Origin: a plasmid
Length of the DNA stretch: 64,000 nt
Strand: one strand, 5' to 3'
Assembly: GCF_056746865.1 (NCBI RefSeq)
Contig: NZ_JBWKMP010000002.1
Both the position numbers and the translations under genes were made by a program. Positions 48,480 to 52,220 of the stretch are shown here, piece by piece (within the stretch, counting starts at the first letter, position 1; each line of letters starts with the position of its first letter). A model generated the notes under the pieces. The model ran no database searches. It was not told the DNA's origin and saw only the letters and a list, made by a program, of their open reading frames with translations.

Positions 48480-49100
48480 CAAAGGTGCCAGAGAGTACAA
48501 AGAAGATCCCGGTACGCTGTAGGCCGCATGGTTACTGGGCTGGAGCATTGTCACTGACAACAGTAGCGACATAAGTGACAACGGGAGTGACTTAAAAGAC
48601 AATGGTAGAGACTATTTCGACGTTGGTAATGATTTTAAGTGACAATGGTAGTGAGGTTAGACTTAAACTTCCACTGTGAGGTAAGGTGACTCGCATTATT
48701 TAAATAAATCATTACTTTCAATTACTTGCGACACGAGTCTGCATGTATGCTTCTATTTCTCAAAAATTTATCCACCGAAAATGCCTGTGGCTGTGATTTA
48801 GCTTTGACGACAGTTTTTATCAGGGAGGCAAGTTGAGACCTGTATAAGAACTAAGCATTTATTTATCCCCATTTTCCACAAGGTAGTTCCAATAATTAGT
48901 ACCTTAGTGTTCCTGATAGATCAAAAGAGATCCCCGCTGCCTCCAGGCCAGACGGCACAAGGCCTGAGACGTGATCAGTGACAACAGTAGTGATTATTTT
49001 GACATTAGTAGTGATTATTATAACGTTGGTAATGAGTTTTTTGACATCAGTAGTGATCAGAGCGACAATAGTAGTGACTTTTCATTAGATCTTTTTAACT
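48480..49100. repeat. Degenerate iteron-like repeats (GACAAYRGTAGTGA core) upstream of the second rep gene
   Basis: Motifs such as CTGACAACAGTAGCGACATAAGTGACAACGGGAGTGAC, AAGTGACAATGGTAGTGAGG, GTGACAACAGTAGTGATTATTTTGACATTAGTAGTGATTATTATAACGTTGGTAATGAG and GCGACAATAGTAGTGACT share a core with the array downstream of the gene. Confidence 0.7.
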
Positions 49101-49296
49101 TGATCTGATCCGTTGTTGATAAGAGTTGCAGGTCATTGTATGCAAAGAGTTTTTGCCAAGTTTTAATGAGTGGAGTCGTTTTTTTAGGTAGAACTTATGC
49201 ACAGATATGGATCATCACAATGATCCATCCAGTGACATAGAGTTCGCTGGGGCTTACTATTCACCAATCTGTTTACACATTCAGTGATAACTTATT

Positions 49297-50383
49297 ATGA
49301 CTAAAGAGAAAGATACTGAGCAGCAGGACCTGGTCACCAGGGCTTTCTCTGTTAGAGAGAAAGAATCAGGTAAAGACATCATTTTGCGTCCTAACAGCAA
49401 CCGTACGGTGCAGTCTATTGCTTTGATGCGGCTCGGGCTGTTCGTCCCATCACCAAAGAGTGTGGGGCGTCAAAATCGGGAATATAAAACGGTTGGCTTT
49501 GACGCAACGAAAGAGTTACAGACGCTCTCTTTAATGGAGAGCGAGGGGTTCACCAATATTTCAATTGTCGGTGAGCGTCTTAATATGTCAGTAGATTTTA
49601 AGACGTGGATGGGCATCATTCGAACCTATGCCAATCATCCGATTAACAATGACACGATAAGCTTAAAATTCACTGAATTCCTCAAGCTATGTACGCCTGA
49701 AAATTATCGCTCATCTACAGCGTCCAGAAAACGTATAGACGCCTCCTTACGCAGGTTAGCATCCGTTACCTTGTCGTTCACCAGTAATAACTCGTCCAGT
49801 CTATACAACGCATCTGGTACAGTCTGCCCTGTTAGACCCGGAATCAGATCAGGTTGTCCTTCAGGTTGATCCTAAGATTTTCGAGCTCTATCAATACGAT
49901 CATAAGGTTTTGATGCAGCTGAAGGCAATTAAGGAGTTGGCCAAGAAGGAAAGCGCCCAGGCTCTCTATACGTTCATAGAGTCATTACCGCCAAATCCTA
50001 TACCGATATCCCTTACTCGGCTGAAAAATCGTCTGAACCTCAAAACACGAGCAAATAGTCAGAATGCTACCGTGAGAAAGGCTCTTGAAGAGTTGGCATC
50101 GATAGGATACCTCAAGTACACCGAAATTAAGAAAGACGGAAAAGTATACTTCCAGATTCATAAGCGGGATCCCGATCTGAATTTGAACAATACTCAGCCT
50201 CCTTTAGAAGTGGTTGAAGATGAAGAAGAGAACTCAGGGTCTTCTGTTTTAGAAGGTGAGTTATGCCCACCAGCTGACCCGATTGACGGCGATGATGTTC
50301 TTACCGTCCATGATTTAACCGCTGAAGAACTGCGCTATATTCGTAGTCTTCGAAGCCAGAAAAAGAACAGCAACGCCAGCTAA
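49297..50383 (+). pseudogene. Second Rep_3-type replication initiator, split by an apparent frameshift
   Basis: ORFs 49297..49869 and 49910..50383 are colinear with the N- and C-terminal halves of the 35226..36101 Rep (VQSIALMRLGLFVPSP versus VQPVALLRLSVFTPVG; C-terminal [26 protein letters not shown] versus ELESIGYLDYQEVKKGRDIQFQIFKR). The frame changes near 49800. Confidence 0.6.
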
Positions 50384-50459
50384 AGTTAACCCGGCGGTTT
50401 AGGCTCCGGGTGCTAAATTACTTCTTCGATTTTCGTTAGTCCCAGCCCGCTCTTTCACG

Positions 50460-52220
50460 TCAACGGTAATGAGTCAAAAGTCATTACCGTTGTCATTGTT
50501 CTCTACCACCCTATGTAGATCGAGATTGCGAAATTCAACGCTTTCTCCTGAGTCACCTGTTAACACCCGGTTTCTACGCTTTACTTCATTGGCCAGTACA
50601 TCCAACGGAAAATATCGTAACGGGGTGACAATGGCAGTGAGTTGACCCACTCACTACCATCGACATTCAAATCCCGGCTTCTCTGGTAGCTATAGTGACA
50701 ATGGTAATGATGTGTACCTTACTGGCATTGTCATTGTCCTCCGAGTGTGCGTTCAGCTTTGGGAGGACACCGGAACTTAATGCGGCGAGTCACGGCCATT
50801 GTGAATCTCGATTGGATTGGCGAATACGGCTTCCGGTTGGGCCAGATGTCAATGGTTATGCTTCATCCAGCTCATTACTGTAGTCATTGCCGTTCAGTTG
50901 AGCTGATGCTCCTCTCATTCTATATGGCGACAACGGTAGTGAGCCCAGAAAGTGACTACCGTTGTCATGGCCGTCCAGTAGAGCGGGTCAACCTCTTAAC
51001 TCACAGGGTGACAACGGTATTGAGCCCAGAAAGTCACTACCGTTGTCATGGCCGTCTGGTTAAGCAGATCATCCTCTCAATTCACAGGGTGACAATGGTA
51101 GTGAGCCTATTAAGTCATTACCGTTGTCATTGCCATCCAGAAGAGCGGATGATCCTCTCAATTCATACGGCGACAATGGCAGTGAGCCCAGCAAGTCACT
51201 TCCGTTGTCATAGCCTTCCAGAAGAGCAGATGAGCCTCTTAATTAACAGGGTGACAACGGTAGTGAGCTCATTAAGTCATTACCATTGTCATGGACGTAC
51301 AGCTGAGCTGCTCATCCTCTCAATTCACACACCGACAATGGTAGTGAGCTATTAAAGTCACTACCATTGTCATATACGTCCAGTTAAGTGGACCATCCTC
51401 TCAATACACACGGTGACAACGGTAGTGAGCCATTAGAATCACTACCGTTGTCATTGCTTTTCAGGTGCACTGATAAGGCTCTCAATAGACACGACGACAA
51501 TGGCAGTGAGCAATTAGAGTCACTACCGTTGTCATTGCTTTCAGCTGAGCTGATAAGGTACGTCATTTACACGATGACAATGGCAGTGAGCCAATCGAGT
51601 CACTACCGTTGTTAATGCCGACCAACCGAGGGAAGGGTCCGCTCAAAGAACTGAGTGACAACAGTAGTGAGATCATCCAATCACTACCATTGTCAGCTTA
51701 AACCTGTAGGACGAAGAGGCTTGTCCGATAAAATGACGACAATGGAAATGAGCCTATCCATCACTACCACTGTCATTAAAGTCCAGCGGTTCAACGTTAA
51801 TCAGTAGCTCCGGATGACAATGGTTGTGAGTCAGGCAATTCCCAAGCATTAGGTGACAGCAGCGTAACACCTCTAAGCTCACTTCTGTTGTCAGGGGTTA
51901 GGGTATTGAGTCTCTACCGTCGTCAGTGTTTCTGAGACACCAGTATTGCAGATCACTACAATTGTCACTTAAATATCGACGGGGGAGTAGATGCAAGTGA
52001 CTGGCTAACCAGTACCAGTTTAGATTCAAAACGATCCCATCTTTGTGGATGCGCTTGAGTAAGCTCGTATGACGATATGTCAGAGAAGTGACAACAGGTG
52101 TGAGTTGCCGGACTCACTCCCGTTGTCATCCCCGGTTGAAGGAAGAGAATCCCCGGGGCTGTATATTTACCAGGTATCCTTACTCAAGGGGTTCGACACT
52201 CACTCCCATTGTCGTAATCA
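50460..52220. repeat. Iteron array: about 20 tandem units of ~80 bp, each containing an inverted repeat GTGACAACGGTAGTGAGC...GTCACTACCGTTGTCAT
   Basis: Highly regular units between about 50.9 and 51.8 kb, with more degenerate copies on both sides out to about 52.2 kb. Confidence 0.85.

Follow-up and report, generated by a model that had tools for sequence, protein, structure and literature searches.

We analysed a 64,000-nucleotide stretch of plasmid DNA (the window; NCBI RefSeq assembly GCF_056746865.1, contig NZ_JBWKMP010000002.1) in which an array of long repeats lies downstream of a split replication initiator gene. We conclude, with a probability of roughly 0.8, that 48.3 to 52.2 kb of the window is the RepHI2A replicon of an IncHI2 (R478-type) plasmid, an iteron replicon of the P1 RepA kind whose field of sites downstream of the initiator gene is an enlarged incA-type locus. 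The array of 81-bp units within this field is the long-iteron array of R478/IncHI2 RepHI2A, described in 2001 and 2004 and so already known. An earlier reading of the DNA (the original prediction) had held the array to be unusual; that claim fell with the match to the R478 RepHI2A iteron set, a kind of finding that the prediction itself had named as refuting it.

The whole window is IncHI2 plasmid backbone. The 4.2-kb region at 48200-52400 matches 1237 PLSDB records, of which 479 reach >=99% identity; their hosts include Escherichia, Salmonella, Enterobacter, and Klebsiella, among others. The matching plasmid records are typed IncHI2A, and their annotation of the matched gene is the IncHI-type initiator RepHI2. 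Plasmid pSTM6-275 (NZ_CP019647.1) is 100% identical over the RepHI2A region except for two A's missing here at 49798/9, and the nucleotide identity to R478, the reference plasmid for IncHI2, is about 98%. R478 shares with the window repHI2, both upstream iteron sets, and the 81-bp array ~0.5 kb after rep; it carries 12 good and 1 degenerate regular units, compared with 11 good and 1 degenerate in the window, which has in addition a private 2-bp deletion in rep. According to PMC8490738, in a passage citing Page 2001 and Gilmour 2004, R478 carries twelve iterons of 80-81 bp at a distance of ~500 bp from repHI2, and cloning provided evidence of activity. This description agrees with the 12 units found here, the first of which starts 463 bp past the rep stop. 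In the iteron review PMC4980987, R478 is the source given for iterons of "up to even 76-bp," and the title of Page 2001, as cited there, speaks of two autoreplicative regions in IncHI2. The features of the region, with the second replicon of the window last, are as follows.

48292 to 48329, no strand assigned: isolated inverted pair of iteron-like sites (GGACCATGGTAGTGA and its reverse complement) at a 20-bp offset, ~100 bp past the stop of the upstream Ig-like gene.
48554 to 48656, plus strand: origin iteron set 1, five direct 18-bp sites at 21-bp spacing, the fourth degenerate.
48657 to 48977, no strand assigned: A+T-rich spacer between the iteron sets, with DnaA-box-like 9-mers at 48768, 48863, and 48872 (1 mismatch each) and GATC at 48919, 48929, and 48973.
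48978 to 49079, plus strand: origin iteron set 2, five direct sites at 21-bp spacing, the third degenerate.
49080 to 49296, plus strand: rep leader, with GATC at 49088, 49102, 49107, 49210, and 49222, DnaA-box-like sites at 49114 and 49195, and a second promoter-like site at 49232-49260.
49297 to 50383, plus strand: repHI2, for the RepHI2A initiator of the P1 RepA family, here split into open reading frames (ORFs) at 49297-49869 and 49910-50383.
50457 to 50734, no strand assigned: three head-to-head iteron pairs at irregular spacing (50457/50479, 50625/50649, and 50695/50717).
50846 to 51816, no strand assigned: regular array of 12 units of 81 bp (one of 80), the first degenerate and 11 good.
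Layout of each unit in the regular array: left arm GTGACAAYGGTAGTGAGC, 6-7-nt variable loop, right arm GTCACTACCGTTGTCAT, 40-nt linker.
51814 to 52215, no strand assigned: degenerate distal tail, with pairs at 51814/51877 (63-bp offset) and 52088/52112 and three single minus-strand sites at 51909, 51951, and 52198.
34504 to 36236: second replicon, of RepHI1A(R478)/repHI2C type, with rep at 35226-36101 on the minus strand (291 aa).

The field is built from one motif, GACAAYRGTAGTGA. With up to 3 mismatches allowed, this motif has 62 matches in the window, compared with 14.3 +/- 3.6 in shuffled sequence (0 of 100 shuffles reach 62), and nearly all of them fall in 48.3-52.2 kb. The R478 locus has 47 matches and the RepHI2A-like locus of pCTEL-2 (CP045203.1, Citrobacter telavivensis) has 39, where 0.2-0.3 are expected. 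At <=2 mismatches, 35 sites lie over 50459-52213, 16 on the plus and 19 on the minus strand, giving a field of 1.76 kb. The 18-mer GTGACAACGGTAGTGAGC has exact copies at 51251 and 51413, and in 12 pairs the inverted partner comes 24 bp later. A minus site comes 22-24 bp after 14 of the plus sites, with 12 of the 14 offsets being exactly 24 bp, and the offset from minus to plus is exactly 57 bp in ten cases; together, these two offsets account for the 81-bp period reported by Tandem Repeats Finder (TRF; array at 50872-51612, 9.2 copies, 77% matches). The pair 50457/50479 also fits a terminator-like pattern directly after rep. The field thus contains a real regular array, as predicted, though only 12 units keep the 81-bp register rather than the claimed ~20, the remainder being irregular pairs and a degenerate tail.

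The tandem-repeat and alignment check that the prediction had called for yielded a consensus unit of 81 bp with two arms, a loop, and a linker, confirming that every downstream unit exceeds an ordinary iteron in length and contains an inverted repeat. The "80-81-bp long iteron" is therefore a composite in which a 40-bp linker accompanies two 18-bp sites of the ordinary iteron-like kind, placed head-to-head with a fixed offset of 24 bp. In the unit alignment, both arms fit the degenerate consensus of the origin iterons. As a whole, a unit of 81 bp with an internal inverted repeat falls outside the classical definition of an iteron (17-22-bp direct repeats), which the upstream sets, and each arm singly, do fit. 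Pairwise identity between units is 84% in the left arm and 87% in the right arm, compared with 50% in the 7-nt loop and 53% in the 40-nt linker. Between central and distal units, linker identity drops to 41%, with the arms at 81-84% and the 81-bp register kept. Arm covariation is absent (13.42 matching positions, compared with 13.32 +/- 0.16 for permuted partners; P=0.35). The conservation of the arms but not of loop or linker, together with this lack of covariation, favors protein-binding sites over hairpins. The complementarity of the arms is not under selection, even though each pair can fold as a DNA hairpin, and the linker similarity between units is due only to recent tandem duplication. 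In pCTEL-2, sites and the 24-bp offset are kept in DNA that no longer aligns, but the spacing between pairs is not; the site pair is therefore the conserved module, and the regular 81-bp repeat is a lineage-specific tandem amplification.

Upstream of repHI2, the same core forms the origin iterons, in line with the predicted presence of a related motif there. TRF also calls these 21-bp sets (48556-48613 and 48979-49057), and the layout of set 1 is common to R478 and pCTEL-2. The arrangement expected of a P1 RepA-type origin, with about five direct ~19-bp iterons at ~21-bp spacing and a DnaA box and GATC sites nearby, is present in two sets. The best promoter-like match (10/12) lies within set 2, at 49041-49069. 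By likeness to P1 oriR, the spacer at 48657-48977 is probably the unwinding and host-factor region, its elements being pattern matches only. The isolated inverted pair at 48292-48329 can fold into a 14-bp DNA hairpin (-14.7 kcal/mol) and is kept in R478. Over 48463-49222, the origin module seems to be tandemly duplicated, with a similar GATC-rich stretch before each iteron set, ~424 bp apart; SSU5 shows a like duplication of its origin module, at ~375-383 bp.

The intact repHI2 gene is 1089 nt long and encodes 362 aa; bar the 2-bp gap, the gene in the window is identical to that for WP_000159529.1 of pSTM6-275. RepHI2 shares 41% identity with P1 RepA over 266 aa, the whole of RepA (E=2e-73), and 55% with SSU5 RepA, and it matches phrog_775 in PHROGs (E=6e-110). 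Pfam, NCBIfam hidden Markov model, and PDB sequence searches with RepHI2 gave nothing significant, so its membership of the P1 RepA family, to which the initiators of RepFIB-like and SSU5/pMT1-like replicons also belong, rests on the P1 and SSU5 RepA proteins and PHROGs. An AlphaFold2 model of RepHI2 has a predicted local distance difference test score (pLDDT) of 66.6, with the core at 70-93. In a Foldseek search, bearing on the WH1-WH2 (two-winged-helix) fold of the RepE/pi/RepA class of iteron initiators, the top PDB match of this model is the RepE protein of F (2z9o; E=7.8e-4, prob 1.00), at a template modeling (TM) score of only 0.41; WH1 of MSBI1.176 and TrfA are also listed. Residues 298-362 (~50190-50383) form a 65-aa acidic C-terminal extension that is present neither in P1 RepA nor in the paralog of the window, and that is disordered in the model save for a terminal helix at 343-361.

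The array is stable in length. In a spread sample of the 1127 matching plasmids, the distance from rep to the neighboring Ig-like gene equals the window value or differs from it by +/-80-81 bp, and once by +11 bp; this near-constancy indicates that array length varies by about one unit at most. Like R478, pSA186_MCR1 is 81 bp longer than the window. The distal tail of some deposited plasmids has an IS2 insertion or is interrupted by ISKpn18. Expansion of the array during assembly, which the prediction had raised as a way in which it might fail, is ruled out: the same array is found in hundreds of independent records, and Sanger-sequenced R478 is one unit longer. A CRISPR array is likewise ruled out, as the linkers are homologous between central units (66% identity) and the core also makes up the direct 21-bp iterons ahead of rep; annotation shows no cas gene beside the array.

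What might such a field do? By analogy with the annotation of P1 and with general iteron control (PMC6090056), the array would soak up RepHI2, its predicted ligand, by titration, and would pair with the origin iterons through Rep-Rep contacts (handcuffing). Copy number would be lowered and buffered as a result, and the same activity in trans would cause IncHI2-specific incompatibility. The field downstream of rep occupies the position of P1 incA and is most likely its functional counterpart as well, serving copy control and incompatibility. The paired geometry would place two Rep molecules, or a Rep dimer, on each palindrome. The prediction had proposed an incompatibility, copy-control, or handcuffing element that persists around a dead rep gene. 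The first part is the best functional reading, by analogy; the second finds no support, as the array sits beside an intact repHI2 in >470 plasmids. The alternative ligands that it named, the intact Rep paralog and a ParB-like protein, are unlikely to bind the array, whose core matches the putative RepHI2 origin iterons and is unrelated to the iterons of the paralog. Iterons of the second replicon are found only at 34.5-36.2 kb, with none in the array or the RepHI2A region.

The split of rep had been correctly read from the given sequence. A 2-bp deletion, CCAAAG to CCAG at 49798/9, breaks repHI2 after residue 166, leaving the window without an intact initiator frame at this locus, and the frame is broken in this record only. 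The deletion allele occurs in 0 of 1125 plasmid records and 0 of 274 records drawn from 272 complete E. coli genomes, and an exact-match search of GTDB representative genomes found none. The window differs from pSTM6-275 by about 13 small insertion/deletion (indel) events and about 17 substitutions in a backbone otherwise 99.9% identical. The indels lie at 13118, 17120, 18218, 18650, 19027, 20846-7, 24639-44, 25128-9, 31788, 40790, 43302, 43485, and 49798, mostly outside homopolymers and some beside substitutions. At least five backbone genes are split: repHI2, a DUF4942 gene (42255-43946), a TraK-type secretin gene (31284-32559), parB (~18406-19409), and a 278-aa ORF (16605-17442); the last four are all intact in pSTM6-275. 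The DUF4942 and TraK indels are also private among >1100 relatives, so that all three tested alleles are private. Because an indel-to-substitution ratio near 1 strikes essential transfer and partition genes in a near-identical backbone, we favor a sequence error in an error-rich record as the probable cause of the rep frameshift. Pseudogene calls from this record should not be trusted without reads, and the broken rep, the one apparently unusual feature of the window, is best explained by sequence quality.

A real frameshift would mean that RepHI2A is dead, that the plasmid replicates from the rep at 35226-36101, and that the array is an orphan incompatibility element or Rep sink. Such an outcome, then a recent inactivation, would be tolerable for the plasmid, which has a second replicon; evolved pJXP9 derivatives without ~165 kb including repHI2 have been recovered (PMC9599605). 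It would also suit the two rep ORFs, truly separate in the given sequence, and the two autoreplicative regions of the Page 2001 title. We nonetheless consider it unlikely. The deletion is confined to this record in all of the sets searched, and its companion frameshifts in the TraK secretin, ParB, DUF4942, and a further backbone gene, private-looking as well, form a pattern typical of error and not of evolution. Moreover, the array is unchanged from plasmids with an intact rep and shows nothing specific to a dead replicon. Programmed frameshifting is ruled out by the 1125 plasmid and 274 E. coli records, which lack the deletion and, where listed, annotate an intact repHI2.

More doubtful is the idea that the 24-bp pairing, found in IncHI2 and pCTEL-2 but not in P1 or SSU5, marks a distinct control design. 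Dimers or two cooperating monomers would bind the palindromes, forming an ordered filament phased at 81 bp that stores inactive initiator and handcuffs the duplicated origin. If true, the filament might also act as a fork barrier or set a hierarchy between the two IncHI2 replicons.

We see little chance that the array works like a centromere or tether, or acts as a barrier to replication forks, whether beside or instead of copy control. Tandem palindromic sites ~0.5-2 kb from an origin do recall the family of repeats (FR) of Epstein-Barr virus (EBV) oriP, array length is held within +/-1 unit across a spread sample of >1100 plasmids, and the spacing of units is kept where linker sequence has decayed. 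However, the plasmid encodes partition systems of its own, ParA/ParB and ParM, at about 14-20 kb of the window. The repeats of a plasmid centromere (parS/parC) would be expected to lie beside a par operon and to be bound by its product, but the array has no par gene next to it, and its motif is that of the Rep origin iterons. The homologous replicons (P1, SSU5, and the paralog) also have downstream clusters, that of P1 being annotated as the incA incompatibility determinant, and no data point to fork arrest.

It is highly improbable that the palindromes serve as single-strand hairpins or cruciforms (for example, as priming signals on the transferred or lagging strand) or as an RNA element in place of duplex sites. 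Each pair can fold as a DNA hairpin of 14-16 bp (-8 to -16 kcal/mol, z -4.6 to -9.4), but the arm pairs are no more complementary than permuted partners, and inspection of the site lists by eye shows perfect pairing over the 14-bp core in only 2 of 11 regular pairs. Each arm matches the degenerate consensus of the direct origin iterons, and the array sits between convergent genes, outside the transfer leading region. Rfam gave nothing at E<=1 at the array save a chance mir-71 match far below threshold, and nothing at gathering score window-wide. Finally, that the array codes for a protein of 27-aa repeats is scarcely credible: a long ORF does run through it in the window (50747-51355, 202 aa) and in R478 (229 aa), and a few records annotate a hypothetical protein, but 81 bp is 27 codons, such that like units free of stops yield an ORF automatically (exactly one unit longer in R478), the pCTEL-2 field has no equivalent ORF, the NCBI annotation pipeline PGAP leaves it unannotated in most records, and conservation tracks the palindrome arms and not the reading frame.

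Several points weigh against the reading of the region as a RepHI2A replicon with an incA-type field and a sequence error in rep. The error call rests on pattern, not reads, and homopolymer errors do not typically remove 2 of 3 A's. The structural model of RepHI2 is of moderate quality (pLDDT 66.6; TM 0.41 to RepE). P1 and SSU5 show neither the strict head-to-head pairing at 24 bp nor the 81-bp register, and part of the P1 analogy may therefore not transfer. Substitutions between the window and R478 are as frequent inside sites as outside (1.4% and 1.5%), giving no selection signal at this short distance; this test is uninformative, and conservation of sites over linkers was judged from the within-array and pCTEL-2 comparisons. 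Lastly, the results of Page 2001 and Gilmour 2004 on the array reach us second-hand, through PMC8490738 and PMC4980987. What novelty is left may lie in the paired-site reading of the "long iterons," possibly already in the 2001 paper, and in possible dimer or filament binding.

The presence of a second, iteron-type replicon in the plasmid had been predicted and was borne out: the other Rep of the window (35226-36101, minus strand) is 43% identical to RepHI2. Its replicon has 4-5 direct iterons of the form CATTCAnnnAAATGCyTTT upstream and ~10 downstream sites in both orientations, a cluster of P1 incA size. Between the two replicons lies a Dam-family adenine methylase gene (39662-40495, minus strand), and GATC clusters occur near both origins; the gene may be connected with origin methylation or sequestration. 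The RepHI2A replicon is bracketed by two convergent genes for Ig-like-domain proteins, from a set of three ~800-aa paralogs (45733-48189, plus strand; 52381-54801, minus strand; 58395-60812, plus strand), and a 1434-aa RSP homolog is encoded at 7351-11655 (minus strand). Proteins of this Ig-like/RSP class have been reported as needed for IncHI conjugation (PMC6764697). Another, noncoding tandem array of ~10.4 units of 249 bp (68% matches) occupies 21064-23606, between parA (19406-20659, minus strand) and traC (24474-27146, minus strand). It is present, at variable length, in 1129 IncHI2 plasmids and is almost never annotated; possibly, it is a centromere or otherwise related to par.

Plasmids of the IncHI2 group are important vehicles for mcr-1, mcr-9, extended-spectrum beta-lactamase, and heavy-metal resistance genes, and RepHI2A defines the group. 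Reading the "long iterons" as paired Rep sites in an incA-like field could guide the design of incompatibility-based curing cassettes and studies of copy number.

Among known systems other than R478, a similar design is that of oriR(incC)-repA-incA of P1, which has a homologous initiator and five direct upstream iterons by a DnaA box and five GATC sites. P1 incA, the annotated incompatibility determinant, consists of 9 iterons in 285 bp downstream of repA, in blocks of 3 in origin orientation and 6 inverted. RepHI2A differs in having 35 sites in 1.76 kb, mostly in head-to-head pairs (24-bp offset) and in an 81-bp tandem register, as well as a duplicated origin iteron module and an initiator with a 65-aa C-terminal extension. 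A second, incA-like cluster with sites in both orientations downstream of rep is present in RepHI2A, P1, SSU5, pCTEL-2, and the paralogous replicon of the window. In SSU5, two sets lie upstream of rep, and ~17 sites downstream form two blocks of opposite orientation. The RepHI2A-like replicon of pCTEL-2 (4090-7472; rep at 76% nucleotide identity) has two sets of five sites upstream. Its 30 downstream sites retain the head-to-head pairs at a 24-bp offset but are not in 81-bp register, and another repA is located 1.8 kb away. These comparisons make RepHI2A the extreme member of a known design, with its incA-like field enlarged ~four-fold.

More distant systems offer precedents for parts of this arrangement. 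RepE of F (2z9o) binds direct iterons as a monomer and the inverted-repeat repE operator as a dimer. The operator of F consists of one inverted repeat, located at the promoter, whose arms correspond to parts of an iteron. RepHI2A instead has full-length sites in at least 14 inverted pairs far from the promoter, where dimer binding is hypothetical. The FR of EBV oriP, an array of initiator sites apart from the unwinding element, acts in segregation and enhancement; its protein is unrelated to RepHI2, and nothing here indicates such a role for the RepHI2A field. The inc region of Vibrio cholerae ori2 similarly holds initiator sites apart from the unwinding element and acts by titration and handcuffing, again with an unrelated protein (PMC6090056). 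The Acinetobacter megaplasmid pALWED1.1 has putative iterons of 83-84 bp in 10 copies, hundreds of bp from rep, and its own authors compared these long iterons with those of R478 (PMC8490738). The likeness lies in units of ~80 bp in ten or more copies, whereas the pALWED1.1 array is upstream of a Rep_3 (pfam01051) gene and no sequence similarity is reported.

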